A DNA stretch of 63,959 nucleotides, the filler included, from Basidiobolus ranarum (Eukaryota), in NCBI GenBank assembly GCA_040143965.1. It is 55 parts of 55 records of this genome, joined end to end, with 100 filler letters (N's around TTAATTAATTAA, not from the genome) between each part and the next. Parts side by side here need not be neighbours in the genome. Positions count along the whole stretch, not along the records: positions 4,678 to 5,746 come from JASJQH010013458.1; 54 more parts are not named here. One strand, given 5' to 3'. The notes under the pieces are model-generated. The model saw only the letters and a list, made by a program, of their open reading frames with translations, searched no databases and was not told the origin of the DNA. The translations under genes and the position numbers were made by a program. Position 1 is the first letter of the stretch; each line of letters starts with the position of its first letter. Shown piece after piece: positions 3,509 through 62,800 of the stretch.

Positions 3509-3980
3509 CTCCTATAAAGTCAAAGGTAAAAAATAATGATGTAGTATCAGTTATATGCATGGCAAAAGTAAATATGTTTTTAAAAAGAGACTTCTGTTTG
3601 TAGTGCACATCAAGGGATGAGCAGTCTTTGTAACTCCTATAAAATCATAGAGGAAAAATCATGACATGGTATTAGTTACATGCAAGCCAAAAGTAAATAT
3701 GTTTGTAAAAAGAGGCTTACATTTGTAGTGCATGTCAAGAGATGAGTGGTCTTTGTAACTCCTTTAAAGTCAGAGATATAATATAATGATATGGTAACAG
3801 TTATATGCACTATGGAAGTAAACAGGCTTTTAAAAAGAGGCTCATGTTTGTAGTGCATGTTGACAGTCTACCACCAATGTAGCCCCTATAAAATCAGGGG
3901 CAATGCATAAAGGCATGTTTCCAGTACTATGCAGCTTGAAAGTTAGTAGGTTTTTGAAATTATAGAGGGTTCTGTTGTGC
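3509..3980 (+). repeat. Degenerate 125-bp tandem repeat (~3.5 copies) inside the probable Helitron
   Basis: The unit CTCCTATAAAGTC...TTTGTAGTGCA...CTTTGTAA starts at 3509, 3634, 3759 and ~3884. Confidence 0.85.
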
Positions 3981-4677: not shown

Positions 4678-4958
4678 AGTGTTCCCACTAAGCCTACTTT
4701 TGTTTGGTCTGAGGGGTAGCAATGGGGATGTAACTGGATGATGAGCTTTACTTGGTTAATAAAACCACAATAGTTTTGGTGAGTGCCATCAAACTTATTT
4801 GGTAAGGAGATTTTGGGTTCAGGAGTTGGAATTGCAGTATAGTTGGGTGGAGCTGGATTCTGTACTTGAGCAATAGAAGTACAAAGTTCTTGATTTTCTT
4901 GCTGAAGCTGAGTAAGAGCTTGCATAATATCTTCCATTGTGGGGGCTGGCATAGACAT
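4678..4958 (-). mobile_element. Ty3/gypsy (sushi/chromovirus-type) gag N-terminus, with 5' leader to ~5258
   Basis: Coiled coil followed by PEPKISLPNKFDG...FINQVKLIIQLHP..YPSDQTKVG, typical of sushi/PEG10-like gag. Further copies at 40832-41238 and 60668-61462. Confidence 0.9.
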
Positions 4959-5258
4959 AATACTTACTATTTTGGGAGGGGGAAGTTTTAAAAACCACAA
5001 GTTTCTCTAGGAATGATAATCACAATGCAATGTCCAACTTTCTGTTGAAGAAATGATTGGTGCCTTGACAAAAGAATATGCTGGTATCAACGTCCTTTGA
5101 TCTTGATCAAGTACTAAAGCTTCTTTGATCAAAAACAACTGTAAACTCAACCAGTAGTGTCTTGACAAGGATGCACTTAGAGCAATTATCCAAAGGTGGA
5201 AGGTACCTTTGCCTTAGCAGGGAAGCTTGGGAAAGATGGGGAATAAGAGGGAAGCCAA

Positions 5259-5746
5259 TGTAGTGGGGTAGCATTGCTACCCACTGGCAGGTTGACTTAT
5301 TTCCACTCCGAGCTCATATCATTACTATTGCACAATTTCTACTTTATTATCCTTATTTGACTTACCCATATTTTGTAGCCAATCATATCACACTGTTAGT
5401 ATTATCCCCTATTACCTCAGATTTATCAGCATTAACACACATTAGCCCTATTATTTTCTGGAAATTCTACAATCTTCCGGAACATTCCGCAAGATTCTTG
5501 GAAAATTTGATGATTGATTAAGTTTTGACCAATCAAAACTTGATTTTGCCGGAACATTCCATGACTTTCTGGATTATTCTAAAACCTTCTGGAACATTCA
5601 ATGGATTACTAATCTCATGATTTATGATGATATCATAACCCCTGATCCCCACCAATAGAATTCTCTGGAACTTTCCGGAAAATCTCATTAGTAATCATAT
5701 CTATATTCAGAAAAGTATAAATAGGAGCCATATCTTTTCAAATAAA
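5259..5746 (+). mobile_element. Probable LTR (starts TGTAGTG) with CCAAT boxes, three heat-shock-element arrays and TATAAATA at 5716
   Basis: Interrupts the gypsy leader exactly where it diverges from the copy near 41538. Second copy at ~61855-62230. Confidence 0.65.
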
Positions 5747-7015: not shown

Positions 7016-8084
7016 GCTGGCGCGCAGCTCTACGCGTTGACCCGGAATGTCTCACTTGAGGTTTGTGCTTGACAGTTATTGCTTCTTCAACCACGGTAGA
7101 AGCTTCATCTCTTTTGACTGGCCGCCATGACCTCTGTTGCATGGCAGAACGTGTTGGAGCAAGTTGTCTACCTTGAGGTTTGTGCTTGACAGTTATTGCT
7201 TCTTCAACCACGGTAGAAGCTTCATCTCTTTTGACTGGCCGTGACTGTGGTTGCATGGCAGTACGTGTTGGAGCAAATTGTCTACCTTGTGGTTTGTGTT
7301 TGGCAGTTCTGCCTTTTCAATCATTGTTGAAGCTTCATCTCTTTCAACTGACCATGGCCGTGGTTGCATGGCAGTACGTGTTGGAGCAAGTTGTCTACCT
7401 TGTGGTTTGTGTTATGTGGTTATTGCTTCTTCAACCATACTGGAATCTTCATCTCTTTTGGCTGGCCGTTGCCATGGTTGCATTCCAGTACATGTTGGAG
7501 CAAGTCATATACCTTGAGGTTTGTGTTTGGCAGCTCTTGCCTCTTCAACCATGGTAGAAGCTTCATCTCTTTTGACTGGCCACCATGACCTCTGTTACAT
7601 GACAGAACACATTGGAGCATATTGTCTACCTTGAGGTTTGTGTTCAAATATTGTGGCTTCTTCAAGCTCAGTAAGAGCTTAACTATCTCCCTCAAACACC
7701 TGTTGTCTTGGTCTCATGTGGGTACGCATAGTAGCGGATCGCTGTCTTAGAAGATTGCTCTCAGGTGTCAGATCTTTATCTGACAAAGTGGAAGGTTCAA
7801 TAATTCTTGCGGTTGGCCTTTGTTGCTATTGCGCGGTTGTACGTGTTAATCTGCTCCTTGGAGCTGACTCTTCTCCAGATGTAAAAAGCTCACTGGTTGG
7901 TTTGGTTGAATCAGGTAAATCACGTGCTATGATGCGTGAATATGCAGGCCATCCTCTTTCTGGTTCTTCATCAACTGCTTGCTCTTCATCAAAAACGGGA
8001 GAAACATCACGGACTCTTCCAAGCTGGCATTGCTGTCAATGTGTACTACTAGCTGATGAACCAACTTGTTGGGCTCTTGCCCTT
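7016..8084 (-). pseudogene. Disrupted ORF with six 38/39-aa tandem repeats (114/117 bp)
   Basis: Unit RPVKRDEASTVVEEAITVKHKPQGRQLAPTRSAMQQRSW; register points at 7081, 7198, 7311, 7425, 7539 and 7656; stops and one frameshift. Confidence 0.7.
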
Positions 8085-13065: not shown

Positions 13066-13098
13066 GAATGTTCTTGAAAATTGTTGAATATTCTCGAC
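13066..13098. promoter_or_regulatory. Distal heat-shock element of HSP104 (7 phased nGAAn units, 2 imperfect)
   Basis: GAA tg TTC tt GAA aa TTG tt GAA ta TTC tc GAC. Confidence 0.85.
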
Positions 13099-13306: not shown

Positions 13307-13387
13307 TTCTGGAATCTTCGAAACGTATCCAGTAGGCAGTAGAACTTATTAAATACAAGAAAAGGATACCTCGATCTCATATAAATA
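13307..13387 (+). promoter_or_regulatory. Proximal HSE (TTCtgGAAtcTTC) and TATA box (TATAAATA at 13380) of HSP104
   Basis: Perfect 3-unit HSE ~60 nt upstream of the TATA. CRE TGACGTCA (~13177) and CACGTG (~13245) lie further upstream. Confidence 0.8.
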
Positions 13388-13442: not shown

Positions 13443-13925
13443 ATGAATGCCGATAAATTTACCGAAAAAACTCTCAAACTAATTTCCGCCTCTGTAGACC
13501 TAGCTCGTGAACATGGTCACATACAGCTATCACCAATACACATAGCCTGTGCTCTGTTTAGCGACTCGGACAACTTTCTGAAGATGATTATTCAAAAAGC
13601 TGGAGGTGACCCAACCGTCCCTGAACGTACATTTAAGCGTTTACTATCTAAACTCCCGTCTCAAAGTCCTCCTCCTGAGCCGACTCTCTCACCACAAGCG
13701 TTACAAGTTATCCAAGAAGCTCAAAAAATCCAGAAAGAGAACGGTGACAGTCACGTCTCCATAGATGTACTAATTCGCGCACTAGCAAAACAAAAGGCGA
13801 TTTCAGATGCTCTTTTAGATGCTGGTGTAAGCAAACAAACTCTCGAATCTACGCTTGCTAAAGTCCGTGGAAATCGTAAAGTAGATAGTGCTACTACTGA
13901 AAATTCCTACGAAGCATTATCCAAA
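13443..13925 (+). CDS. HSP104: Hsp104/ClpB disaggregase N-terminal domain (truncated by contig end)
   Basis: MNADKFTEKT...AREHGHIQLSPIHIA...GDSHVSIDVL...VRGNRKVDSATTENSYEALSK; intact, CpG-retaining, HSE-containing promoter. Confidence 0.95.
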
Positions 13926-24525: not shown

Positions 24526-24958
24526 ATGCCTGATTGAGTAAACTCCATTGATTTGACAAAATCTACAGCAAGATTGTGCATTGTGCCCGCAAAAACCTCC
24601 AAGTTTGCTGATGGCAGGAGTGTCACCAATGCACACAATGATATTAGCTTTAAGAAAATATGCACCCATTTGAACCCCATTAGATAACCATTCAAATTCC
24701 ATAATCAAAGGCTCCAAGAAGCTAACTATAAGCACTGGTGATTTAGGTCCACATATGATGGATAGTATCAAAATATTATGACTCTTATACCATTCAGAAG
24801 GAGGAAGATTTAAGTTGCGTAAAATTATTGGCCAGCAAGCCTTTCCAACGGTATATTTGTTTAGTGAGAAACCATCAAGAGCCAATGCAAATGCATGATC
24901 ATATGTGTTCTAAAAGAAACCTTGACTTTTCAGATTCTGGTAGTGATATTCATCAAGT
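24526..24958 (-). mobile_element. CACTA transposase catalytic core (Transposase_21/Tnp2-like)
   Basis: ALDGF...WPIILRNLNLPPSEWY...GPKSP...FLEPL...GDTPAISK.GGFCGH..CCRFC. Confidence 0.93.
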
Positions 24959-32166: not shown

Positions 32167-32583
32167 CTATTCTTTTTTGGATTTCTCAGCCTCATGATGT
32201 GGTGGTGCTACCCAATAGATAGCTCCTTGAATCATGCACGCTAGAAGAGGGGCAATCCACGGGATCCAATGCTGTTGATAATTCTCTGATGCAACTGCTA
32301 ACCCAAGGAATTTCGCAGGGTTAGCGCCAACACCACCAAAGCCTGGAGTTAAACCACCACTTACAAAAATACACAAACCGAGAGCTAAGCCAACGCAGAT
32401 AGGCCCAGTGACAGGCCCAAATACCTTCTGTTGCTTGGGGTCAATGGCGGTGCCCCAAGTAATCCATATGTAAGCCCAACTAAAAATAAATTCCAAACAA
32501 AATGCTTGACCTACTGTAACGGTCGCAGGGTCAAAGCCCCAGGAGCCAAGTTTAGTGGAGACAGTAACATCATGGCCACAGCA
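32167..32583 (-). CDS. Aquaporin (MIP), XIP-like, C-terminal half
   Basis: Frame open from the contig edge: QAFCLEFIFS...AIDPKQQKVFGP...GFGGVGANPAKFLG...HWIPWIAP. Confidence 0.92.
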   Translation of the reverse strand, partial: CCGHDVTVSTKLGSWGFDPATVTVGQAFCLEFIFSWAYIWITWGTAIDPKQQKVFGPVTGPICVGLALGLCIFVSGGLTPGFGGVGANPAKFLGLAVASENYQQHWIPWIAPLLACMIQGAIYWVAPPHHEAEKSKKE

Positions 32584-38504: not shown

Positions 38505-39568
38505 TAGGCTTATGGCTAATACCAAGTTTGATGTTAGACTGACTATTTGGTGAATTGATATCAGTGATCATGTTGAAATCTGACCGGGCTCTTGATGGTA
38601 AAATCATGGAGTTTAGTGTTGTATTTGGATAGTAGTAATGCATATGCCTGTTAGAGTAAACTCCATTGATTTGACAAAATCTACAGCAAGATAGTGCATT
38701 GTGCCCACAAAAACCTCCAAGTTTACTGATGGCAGGAGTGTCACCAATACATACAATGATATTAGCTTTAATAAAATATTCACCCATCTGAACCCCATTA
38801 GATAACCATTCAAATTCCACAATCAAAGGCTCCAAGAAGCTATCTATAAGCACTGGTGATTTAGGTCCAGATATGATGGATAGTATCAAAATATTATGAC
38901 TCTTATATTGTTCAGAAGGAGGAAGATTTAAGTTAATTAAAATTATTGGCCAGCAAGCCTTTCCAACGGTATACTAGTTTAGTGAGAAGCCATCCAGAGC
39001 CAATGCAAATGCATGATCATGCATGTTCTCAAAGAAACCTTGACTTTTTAGATTTTGGTAGTGATATCCATTGAGTATCTTGGTAATACCATCAGCTTTA
39101 CAGTGAGTACTTTGGTATTGGATCAATGATCTATATTTGGGTGATTTTCTCAAAACTTTAAGATGGGGAATCAATGGTATGTAACCCAAATATGAACAAT
39201 ATTTACCTGATTCAGTGATTTTCAAATGTGTGCAAACAGTACTTGACTTCAGGTTTTTCAGATCACTGGTGAGAGCCAAACAACCATTTGGACATGAAAG
39301 GAGTTTAATTACCAAAGGATTATAATTCATACAATTGACAAGTGTTTTCCACTTGTACCAGGTCTGTGGCAAGCAACAGTTGCCAATCAACTGTGATAAA
39401 AGTGCAAGAAAACCAATAAACATCTGGTTGCTAAGATTGGATTGAACTCTCCACTCTTCAATAATCAAAGCTGCTTCCTTTACTGTAAGTGTTATGAGTG
39501 GACTAATGTTTGCTGATAACAAAGAGTCCGTAACAAAACCATTGTCTTCTTCTTCAACTTCTGATATA
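38505..39568 (-). mobile_element. CACTA transposase (longest near-intact piece, one stop at 38974)
   Basis: CPNGC, YIPLIPHLK, ALDGF, GDTPA and GHN..CCRFC motifs. Confidence 0.95.
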
Positions 39569-40831: not shown

Positions 40832-41894
40832 TTTTCTCCTTCTCTGTAATACCAAATGGGGCTTCCAATTCAGCAAGAATGCCAAGCAAGTTTAGAAGAA
40901 GTCAAGATTGACTTTCCATCAAAGGAGCAAACCAAGATAGAGCTGTTCCTGATAATAGTGTTTCCACTAAGCCTACTTTTGCTTGGTCAGAGGGGTAGTG
41001 ATGGGGATGTAACTGGATGTTGAGCTTTACTTTGTTAATACAACCATAATAGTTTTGGCAAGTACTATCAAACTTATTTGGTATGAAGATCTTGGGTTCA
41101 GGAGTTTGATTTGCAGGATAGTTGGATGAAGATGGATTCTGTACTTGTGCAAGAGAAGCACAAAGCTCTTGATTTTCTTGCTGAAGCTGAGTAAGAGCTT
41201 GCATGATATCTTCCATTGTAGGGGCTGGTGTAAACATAATACTTACTATGTTGGGAGGGGGAAGCTTTAAAAACCACAAGTTTCTCTAGGAATGATAATC
41301 ACAATGCAATGTCCAACTTTCTGATGAAGAAATGATTGGCACCTTGACAAACAAATATGCTGGTATCAACATCCTTTGAACTTGATCAAGTACTAAAGCT
41401 TCTTTGATCAAAAACAACTGTAAACTCAACCAGTAGTGTCTTGACAAGGATGCACTGAAAGCAATTATCCAAAGGTGGAAGATACCTTCGCCTTAGCAGG
41501 GAAGCTTGGGAAAGAAGGGGAATAAGAGGGAAGCCAATCTTGGGGGGTTTCAAGGTTGGAGAACAGGGAAGGAGAGAAGTCTTCAGGCAAGTGTAAGTAG
41601 TCTGATCAAACTGTCACAATAAGGAACTAGACAAGGACTGGAAACAATGACAAGAGGCTAGAAGGAAGGAGAGTACTTGGGTGTAGACCACAACACAAGA
41701 GAAGACAAGACTGGACAAGGAAGAAACTTTGGCAAGAATCTTTATTGATAACTGGTGTTGATCAGACTGAGGTCTGATCAAGCAAGACATGGGGCTTATA
41801 TAGATATTGCAAGGTGAAACATAATATACTGAATAGGGAATATACTGTGGCAAGTTCGAGAGTTGGGGTGTTAAGGACTACAAGGACCAATACA
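40832..41894 (-). mobile_element. Chromovirus 5' LTR (41612-41894, ends TGTGACA), PBS (41599-41609), ~370-nt leader and gag
   Basis: TATATAA at 41802-41796, AATAAA at 41746-41741, gag LLSGTALSWFAPL. Confidence 0.92.
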
Positions 41895-44320: not shown

Positions 44321-45383
44321 TACCACAGTTGATTGGCAACTGTTGCTTGCCACAGACCAGGTACAGGTGGAAAATGCTTGTCAATCATATGACTTATAAT
44401 TCTTCAGTAATCAAACTACCTTCATGTTCAAATGGTTGTTTGGCTTTGAACAGTGATCTGAAGTCATGTACTGTTTACACACAATTGGCAATCCCTGAAT
44501 CAGTAGAATAAAATTCATAATTGCCTTACATACCATTGATTCCCCATCTTAATGTTTTGATGAATTCACCCAAATATAGATCATTGATCCACTACCAAAG
44601 TATTCATTGTAAAGCTGATGGTATTACCTATATAGTTGATGGATATCATTACCAAAATCTGAAAAGTCATGGTTTCTTGGCAAACAAGTATGTTCATGCA
44701 TTTGCATTGGCTCTGGATGGTTTCTTGCTAAACAAATATATCTTTAGAGAGGCTTGCTGGCCTATAATCTTAATTAACTTAAATCTTCCTCCATCTGAGT
44801 GGTACAAGAGTCATAATATCTTGATGCTATCCATCAAATATGAAACTAAATCACCAGTGCTTTATAGACACCTTCTTGGAGCTTTTGATTGCAGAGTTTG
44901 AACAGTTATCTAATGGGGTTCAGATGGGTGAATATTTTATTAAAGCTAATATCATTGAATTTATGGTAACACTCCTGCCATCAATAAATGTGGAGGTTTT
45001 CATAGGCACATTGCACTATCTTGCTGTAGACTTTGCCAAATCAATCAAGTCTACTCTATCTGGCATACACATTAGGACTCCCTAATGGAAATTTGAGGAT
45101 TATTATTGTAGAAAAATCTTCACAATTTTAATCCATTTGAGATTGACCATTTAAGGGATCAGCTGGAGCCAGAACTTCCCATTAGACACTATGCACTCAC
45201 TATTTAACTACATTCTAATACTACCTACTCAGCTATATAGAGAAGAAATCAATATAAATGAGCCATTCAAGATAGGATCAAAGTTTGAAATGATTGGGAA
45301 AATGATTGAAAACATTAAGATACCATCATATTTTACCAGGTTTCCCATCAATATCCACTCATCTAGGCAATTATATAAATGCA
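44321..45383 (+). mobile_element. CACTA transposase (degenerate) interrupted by a short terminus B piece at 45080-45150
   Basis: ALDGF and NLNLPPSEWY motifs; CCCTAATGGAAATTTGAGG. Confidence 0.9.
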
Positions 45384-61854: not shown

Positions 61855-62635
61855 TAGATTCTTGGAATATTTGATGATTGATTGAGTTTTGGCCAATCAA
61901 AACTTAATTGTGCTGGAACATTCCATGCCTTTCTGGATTATTTTACAACATTCCTGAACATTTTGTGGATTACAAATCTTATAATTTATGGTGATATCAT
62001 CACCCCAGATCCCCGCCAATAAGATTCTCTGGAACCTTCCAGATATTTCTTATTAGTAATCATTTCTACCATCAGAAAAGTATAAATACGAGCCATATCT
62101 TTTCAAATAAAAATCATCCGGGTTTTCAACTAACATTTACTACTTGTGATTACTCCTTATTCTTGTCACCACTTATGAGACCTCTGAAGAGTAAGCTCAA
62201 GAGAGACTGCTAGAGGTAGTTACAGGCTACTATGTGACTAGAAAGGACTTGACCAGCTCAAAGGAAGTACCGACAGGTAGTTGTTGTATTTCTGATACTT
62301 TATATTTTTTTGTCTGTATAGGCAAGGAACTTTTCATATCCTTGGATAAAATCACTACTAGTGCATTTTTGTTCAAGACCCTGCTGGCTGAGTTTACAGT
62401 TGTTTTTGATTGGATATACCCATCTTATCTGATCATTCTCAAAGGATGTTGAAGCCAGTATATTCTTTTGTCAGGTGCCAGCATATTATTCCACAGAAAG
62501 CTGGACATTGCATTGTGGTGTATTGATCCTTAGACAATTCTAGAGGCTTGATTGCCTTTCACAAAGACCCAAGAGGCAAGAGACAGACCCTTATTACAGT
62601 ATATCCCAGAGTTATTCAACTGTGGTTATTACACC
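61855..62635 (+). mobile_element. Second HSE-LTR copy (to ~62230), followed by gypsy-like 5' leader
   Basis: Aligns with 5495-5746; 62430-62540 is homologous to the leader at 5005-5110. Confidence 0.7.
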
Positions 62636-62800
62636 CCCTAACAAATATAAAATTGATTTGATCAAGAGCAGATCCACCCTCCAAAAGAGCAAAACCATCA
62701 GAGAACCATCACAATATTGGTAGCTTGCATTCTGCCAGGGATTTTGAATATGGGACAACAGTTTCTTGACCGTAGTTTGATGGTATTCATACATGTTAAA
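62636..62800 (+). mobile_element. CACTA terminus A
   Basis: CCCTAACAAATAT and AAAACCATCAGAGAACCATCAC. Confidence 0.88.

Follow-up and report, generated by a model that had tools for sequence, protein, structure and literature searches.

Does the fungus Basidiobolus ranarum carry a retrotransposon whose promoter answers to the heat-shock factor (HSF) of its host? The question is raised by a 488-bp block that begins at position 5259 of the window, the whole 63,959-nucleotide stretch of DNA analysed here, filler included. A preliminary description had seen in this block a long terminal repeat (LTR) with three phased arrays of heat-shock elements (HSEs), possibly from an element like ONSEN of Arabidopsis. 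The window is composed of 55 unrelated contigs of ~1.06 kb, separated by N/TTAATTAATTAA/N linkers, with no linkage across the N runs. The reading favored here, at a probability of roughly 0.6, is that the U3 region of the LTR would act as an HSF-driven stress promoter, in an element that targets CpG within repeat islands.

The LTR and its family

The element starts with TGTAGT at 5259 and, as had been claimed, the insertion point is clean, with an uninterrupted homologue of the flank in the contig at 40832-41894. The interrupted sequence (4678-5258) matches 40957-41548 at 92% identity over 592 bp, and the empty homologous site at 41531-41546 carries the same word, CCAA, as 5255-5258. The block is part of an LTR with an HSE-type U3, although it is not the whole LTR that the preliminary description took it for. 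The full LTR is ~1090 bp and has 6-bp inverted ends (TGTAGT...ACTACA). Family copies extend ~600 bp beyond the end of the window contig and stop at ACTACA; therefore, 5259-5746 is U3 plus the start of R. The window copy has no polypurine tract (PPT) before 5259 and is read as a 5′ or solo LTR. A purine tract at that place was considered as the PPT and rejected, because it is part of the interrupted element and is unlike the true PPT. The features of the LTR and of related sites are collected in Table 1.

Table 1. Positions of the LTR features and related sites along the window
Feature	Position	Strand	Remarks
U3 and start of R, Ty3/gypsy LTR	5259-5746	+	cut by contig end
Left 4-bp target-site copy CCAA, read as decayed C-CG-A	5255-5258	+	family-wide NCGN target
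Short palindrome, LTR 5′ end	5262-5285	+	-7.5 kcal/mol, z -2.5, 3/200 shuffles as good
CCAAT box 1	5379-5383	+	intact in 47/61 copies
HSE array 1	5456-5497	.	in phase 5465-5497; TTC every 10 bp
12-bp inverted repeat around CCAAT box 2	5517-5544	.	z -5.0, 0/200 shuffles
CCAAT box 2	5529-5533		intact in 48/61 copies
HSE array 2	5547-5599	.	ten units from 5552, TGC-CG before; score 6
CCAAT box 3	5652-5656	+	intact in 45/61 copies
HSE array 3, TATA-proximal	5658-5680	.	score 4; common to older sister family
TATA box TATAAATA	5716-5723	+	exact in 36/61 copies
Leader and gag start of another LTR family, interrupted by window copy	4678-5258	-	
Second, independent LTR fragment, other contig	61856-62636	+	86% over 256 bp
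Host Clp_N (HSP104-type) promoter arrays	13066-13093, 13307-13319	.	scores 5 and 3, 0/3000 shuffles

The second LTR fragment carries arrays 2 and 3, the TATA box, R, and most of U5, lacks array 1, and is broken off near 62636 by another repeat. It had been described as a decayed second copy of the block. Because the window consists of unrelated joined contigs, the two copies are not one element's pair, and paired LTRs within the window are ruled out. Nor is the fragment followed by a gypsy-type leader, as had been proposed; the sequence past 62111 is R/U5 of the LTR. At about 62276-62320, and in family copies, R/U5 holds an intron-like GT...AG stretch (ACAG/GTAG...CCCTAG in most). About 175 bp of U5 are common, at 78%, to the leader of another LTR family (62342-62517 versus 5021-5193). 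In that other family, the 5′ LTR is followed by sequence like its own LTR, possibly reflecting self-priming.

The family is large. At least 40 other matches to 5259-5746 have 87-96% identity (40 scored among 297 candidates), and at least 179 LTR 5′ ends are found in the genome with a 27-base 5′-end pattern (up to 3 mismatches; control 0). A PPT is present at 10 of 111 5′ junctions and a primer-binding site (PBS) at 5 of 44 3′ junctions; solo LTRs or outer ends therefore form the majority of copies. Among the contigs examined, none holds a full-length copy with both LTRs. The PBS is complementary to the 3′ end of host tRNA-Lys(CTT). Elsewhere in the genome, tRNA genes form mixed, dense clusters, with up to 8 in 3 kb (L230-L244).

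Coding sequence places the element. An open frame of 708 aa (L116) comprises DUF4100, an aspartyl protease, and RVT_1, and one of 485 aa (L180) comprises the end of RH and the integrase, ending just before the PPT; open frames of these lengths suggest recent copies. The pol order is PR-RT-RH-IN, with the integrase last, as pieced together from separate copies and ordered against the relative P0006. No Pfam match past rve, such as a chromodomain, is found in the 485-aa frame. The family is a non-chromoviral Ty3/gypsy element, and its nearest named RT relatives are in Rozella, Riccia, and Chara, at about 45-47%. P0006, the best relative, ends in a PHD finger, which the family lacks. The 5′ hairpin might suggest a Helitron or DNA transposon, a reading ruled out by the PBS, PPT, and pol.

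Other contigs of the window hold abundant Transposase_21 (Tnp2) fragments (38506-39567, 24526-24909, and 44521-44898; one scanned in Pfam), tandem repeats, each unit about 115-125 bp long (7048-7680 and 3509-3860), and an aquaporin (MIP) gene fragment (32170-32583, minus strand).

The heat-shock-element arrays

The three arrays lie where the preliminary description had placed them, at 5465-5497 (TTC CAA TTC GAA TTC CAA TTC), 5552-5599 (ten phased units: GAA, TTC, tga, TTC, GAt, TTC, aAA, TTC, GAA, TTC), and 5658-5680 (GAA, cTC, GAA, TTC, GAA). The CCAAT boxes said to separate them (5379, 5529, and 5652) and the TATA box downstream at 5716 are likewise present. Their architecture is a TTC every 10 bp with GAA, CAA, GAT, or TGA between, such that perfect cores are set within step-type arrays. 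In array 1, CAA occupies two of the GAA slots. Most copies have an extra in-phase TTC-GAA pair upstream of array 1, which a 1-bp deletion in the window copy puts out of phase (5456-5463).

Arrays were scored with +1 for a perfect triplet, 0 for one mismatch, and -1 otherwise, a metric specific to this analysis and not a measured HSF matrix. The block scores 15, versus a mean of 0.04 for dinucleotide shuffles, and 0 of 3000 shuffles reach 15. It has three perfect three-unit HSEs (contiguous inverted nGAAn, at 5475, 5587, and 5668) versus 0.01 expected, and six step-type HSEs, which the available text of one source defines as TTC-n7-TTC-n7-TTC (PMC4894976), versus 0.01 expected. In total, the window copy has 15 perfect units across the three arrays. 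Any array at all is found in 3 of the 55 contigs, namely the two with LTR copies and the one with the Clp_N gene promoter. In 339,765 bases of other genome DNA there are seven arrays of score 3 and none of 4 or more (overlaps counted; HSP loci and the HSE-selected L088-L103 and L129-L167 left out).

Host heat-shock genes are built in the same manner. The gene at 13443 has a Pfam Clp_N match, and we take it to be HSP104. Its promoter was said to show the pattern of the block with fewer units, and it does (score 8 versus 15). Step-type arrays with scores of 3-6 are found in 8 of 9 cytosolic HSP70 promoters, with imperfect units of kinds found in the LTR (TTG, the reverse of CAA; ATC; TGC). Arrays are also present in 3 of 11 other HSP70-family loci (20 of 30 HSP70-family loci scored in all) and 3 of 9 small-HSP loci. 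The TATA word TATAAATA is identical in HSP104, one small HSP, and some HSP70 promoters. At L131/L132 (C7291), two small HSP genes have a common divergent promoter with two HSE arrays. The heat-shock switches of the U3 are denser than those in the heat-shock genes checked.

The arrays are retained throughout the family. Of 75 distinct U3-complete copies, 56 have all three arrays, 18 have two, and one copy has a single array. Scores are 14-17 in the five young copies with the best dating. The window copy ranks with the youngest (branch 3.0%; minimum 1.2%), and the array score drops as branch length rises (rho -0.37, P = 0.001). A five-unit array-1 pattern has 147 matches in the genome (control 0), and the 100 among the matches listed resemble family sequence. 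A perfect four-unit HSE was rejected as a family marker, with 16 sites versus 8 in the control and the family or its relatives making up 4 of the 16. One or more array-bearing source elements gave rise to a burst whose remains include at least 179 LTR ends. Since the arrays are family-wide, stand above background, and are built like host HSP promoters, wiring to HSF is the best reading, and the element probably turns on under cell stress.

A different account is that the arrays are a neutral minisatellite, in which a 10- or 20-bp unit was duplicated by slippage and passively copied in one burst, its likeness to HSEs being incidental. Arrays 1 and 2 have a 34-bp direct repeat in common at 85%, and TRF detects period 10 (2.3 copies) and, in array 2, period 20 (2.5 copies, 72% matches), all of which fit such an origin. 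The arrays thus overlap short tandem duplications, and duplication alone can yield phased units, a process that the shuffles do not model. The family tree is also star-like, with a terminal length of 4.87, an internal length of 0.18, and a closest pair at 98%, so the presence of arrays in all copies reflects inheritance, not selection. However, three separate arrays are interspersed with CCAAT boxes and have a TATA box downstream, and no other examined repeat carries such arrays. Array 3 has no TRF repeat and persists in a sister LTR family that is older and about 70% identical (L102 and L103, with scores of 5 and 4), in which array 2 is decayed and array 1 is absent.

Conservation is, moreover, uneven within the 10-bp register and follows the HSE pattern. 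TTC and AA carry 1.1-1.25 bits and the free positions 0.19-0.51, the registers not being independent. Two points count against a functional reading. Within the core, conservation is lowest at the G of GAA, at 0.43 bits (CAA, TGA, and GAT units), and the sign of selection on the cores is weak. Internal-branch changes in the 54 core columns number 13 versus 23 expected from base-matched columns (P = 0.065, on a star-like tree); terminal changes are slightly low as well, at 190 versus 223 (P = 0.018), perhaps through ascertainment. The comparison of core with spacer gives P = 0.04 and that of core with other U3 gives P = 0.19, again on a star-like tree. By column frequency, 0 of 48 core columns are polymorphic versus 21 of 392 others, a difference not significant by our estimate. 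The minisatellite account is quite improbable.

The same duplications bear on how a stress promoter may have arisen. A host HSP promoter was considered as the source of the arrays and rejected, the best match across the HSP104 contig and 39 HSP loci having E 0.61. That match, of the distal HSP104 array to array 1, covers 20 of 24 bases with the CAA unit included and is not homology. Because no homology to a host promoter is found, the arrays were probably built in place by duplication within the element. In the favored reading, a TTCYRGAA module duplicated within U3 would have created the stress-inducible promoter.

CpG sites, insertion target, and genomic neighborhood

The U3 has four ancestral CpG columns, all of them spacers of TTC-CG-GAA (in one case TGC-CG-GAA), and the whole 1090-bp LTR has seven, four in HSE spacers. 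The CpGs of the HSE spacers have decayed to TG or CA in about two thirds to three quarters of copies, which suggests that the sites were methylated. This decay leaves the HSE cores whole. Passing from TTC-CG-GAA to TTC-TG-GAA or TTC-CA-GAA, the switch would survive the methylation-driven erosion imposed by the host. Across the contigs of the window, CpG observed/expected (o/e) ratios are about 0-0.3 in repeats and 0.6-1.0 in gene-like contigs, a split that is a mark of strong CpG methylation of repeats.

CpG also defines where the element inserts. Junction bases follow N-Y-R-N, and 131 of 140 junctions have TG, CA, or CG as the middle pair. An undecayed CG holds this place in 14 of 140, versus 0.3% in flanks (P = 1.6e-17), and TA accounts for 3 of 134 YR pairs at junctions versus a background of 32%. 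The 4-bp target-site duplication (TSD) is exact in 3 of 17 solo LTRs; when CG, TG, and CA are pooled, 7 of 17 match (permutation mean 1.5, P = 1e-4), with target pairs such as ATGT/ACAT and GCAC/GTGC. The mismatched CG/TG/CA pairs indicate that the target was a CpG, which later decayed independently in each duplicate. The family inserts at CpG, with a 4-bp NCGN target. A general artefact is rejected, as CG, TG, or CA occurs in 1 of 12 non-PBS flanks of a second LTR family (our own count) versus 35 of 39 here. No CpG-targeted insertion of this kind was found in the literature searched, which was covered in part. In one case (L021, C8246), a copy lies within the CCGG that opens array 2 of a different copy.

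The surroundings of the copies bear on the proposal, made in the preliminary description, that the family could spread heat inducibility to neighboring genes. Repeats make up 104 of 107 5′ flanks, where the CpG o/e is 0.07. At 128 loci, gene-like CpG is found in 2 of 407 flank windows, versus 369 of 432 at host-gene loci, and the one of the two that was inspected (L174) is another repeat. No gene neighbors were found at the loci examined, which are mostly short contigs and represent part of the at least 179 ends. The copies lie in CpG-depleted repeat islands, and gene-spread of heat control is not what they show. It follows from these flanks that a host co-opting the LTRs as portable heat enhancers of neighboring genes is very improbable, even with at least 179 mostly solo LTRs that carry intact arrays, a fragmented assembly, and 100 of the 179 LTR ends among the matches listed. 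Genes are roughly tenfold richer in CpG, so the element may favor CpG that is methylated or heterochromatic, or else insertions into genes have been purged. A CpG-centred target would be a way into silenced DNA without a chromodomain.

Candidate readers of the arrays and known systems

The host has two HSF1 orthologues (L061 and L063), with the segment SFVRQLNMYGF. The HSF domain (PF00447) has 93 matches in the genome, or about 68 loci by hand count, many of them in tandem. Twelve HSF-domain stretches inspected include the two HSF1, about eight of other types (presumably Skn7- or Sfl1-like or other), and, for the rest, members of a short-protein family. These HSF-like proteins are 220-290 aa long, are encoded by one-intron genes (e.g., L064 C286 and L070 C1061), and keep the recognition segment, with CxxC and a short coiled coil after it. 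Residues S, F, R, Q, L, Y, G, and F of that segment are invariant in 17 of 17 aligned sequences. Among 16 matches, 13 are further B. ranarum proteins and one is from B. meristosporus. No published description of this expansion was found in the literature searched. Amid the HSF-like genes, a frame at L064:4662-6326 has motifs that we take to be nitrate-reductase-like.

With recognition residues so constant in a tandem, lineage-specific expansion, the HSF-like proteins could be readers of the LTR arrays. Either they or a constitutive HSF1, serving as a shield against nucleosomes or methylation, would then occupy the arrays, and the trigger would be developmental or host-related and not heat. The confinement of all four U3 CpG columns to HSE spacers is what protection by a bound factor predicts. 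Set against this, the putative binders lack the long coiled coil of HSF1, have a divergent wing, and are interrupted by stops at several loci, and the arrays match promoters presumed to be under HSF1 control. On balance, such a reader or shield is unlikely.

For the stress promoter preferred here, we infer binding, induction, the methylation state, and the trigger from sequence. When the cell meets heat or proteotoxic stress, multiple HSF1 trimers would bind the arrays cooperatively, and bound HSF1 would open the methylated LTR to yield full-length RNA. This RNA would be primed by tRNA-Lys(CTT), and the product integrated at NCGN in other repeats, where insertion would be a safe haven limiting harm. 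B. ranarum lives in soil, in the guts of cold-blooded animals, and occasionally in mammals.

A bolder version is doubtful. HSF occupancy and CpG methylation might compete at the HSE bases as a gate, with the chromodomain-less element homing to CpG, possibly methylated, in repeat islands, and ~60 short HSF-like proteins whose recognition helix is intact acting on the arrays as competitors or activators. If true, it would amount to an arms race between a transposon and HSFs in an early-diverging fungus. Counting against the stress promoter, 4,879 promoters with Hsf1 motifs in Candida are unbound and nucleosome-covered, as given in the available text (PMC4894976), and the copies of the present family appear to lie in methylated DNA.

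HSE-bearing LTRs are already known; what is new here is a fungal non-chromoviral gypsy element, unusually dense arrays, and a CpG target. The likeness to ONSEN that had been proposed stands by analogy, through HSEs in an LTR, and fails in that the element is Ty3/gypsy and has CpG inside its HSEs, whereas ONSEN is Ty1/copia. ONSEN prefers genic insertion sites, in contrast to the CpG sites in repeat islands used here. The B. ranarum element would work like ONSEN but is not a member. Both have hosts with many HSFs, 21 in Arabidopsis according to the portion of the source available (PMC3907296) and about 68 HSF-domain loci in B. ranarum. The same text describes HSEs in the LTR promoter of ONSEN (COPIA78) that are read by host HSF, with binding and induction proven, and an LTR free of CG or CHG sites (PMC3907296). 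In B. ranarum, the reader is a candidate, the element is known from its sequence, and the four CpGs of the U3 all lie in HSE spacers.

Among fungal elements, Ylt1 has a 4-bp TSD and MAGGY of Magnaporthe is a chromovirus. Placement of the present element near Ylt1 is a lead. The Ylt1 and SN_1006 clades are, in the passages available, also fungal Ty3/gypsy without a chromodomain and with a long LTR (PMC2864245, PMC3248453). The likeness is by description, and here the primer is tRNA-Lys(CTT) and the RT relatives are at about 45-47%. MAGGY is alike as a fungal gypsy with stress-induced promoter activity, and the available part of its paper makes no mention of an HSE (PMC3978060). TCN12 and TCN3 of Cryptococcus are fungal LTRs with putative HSEs, step-type in TCN12; in the available text they have one or two imperfect sites and mobility measured at 37 °C, versus three arrays read from sequence here (PMC9942834, PMC12810828). 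According to the available part of a 2026 paper, heat-induced activation of transposable elements via host machinery was undescribed in fungi (PMC12810828). No published description of the present family was found by title or abstract in the literature, covered in part.

Comparable HSE-bearing LTRs are known from an animal. The Mag, CsRN1, and Gmr1/Osvaldo families of Macrostomum lignano are, in the text available, non-chromoviral Ty3/gypsy elements whose LTRs gained HSEs independently, with more than 250-fold induction and an HSE requirement established by experiment (PMC12801592). HSF-driven retrotransposon activation is thus proven in plants and a flatworm, and the U3 of B. ranarum is a much stronger fungal candidate, which would extend convergent HSE capture to an early-diverging fungus.
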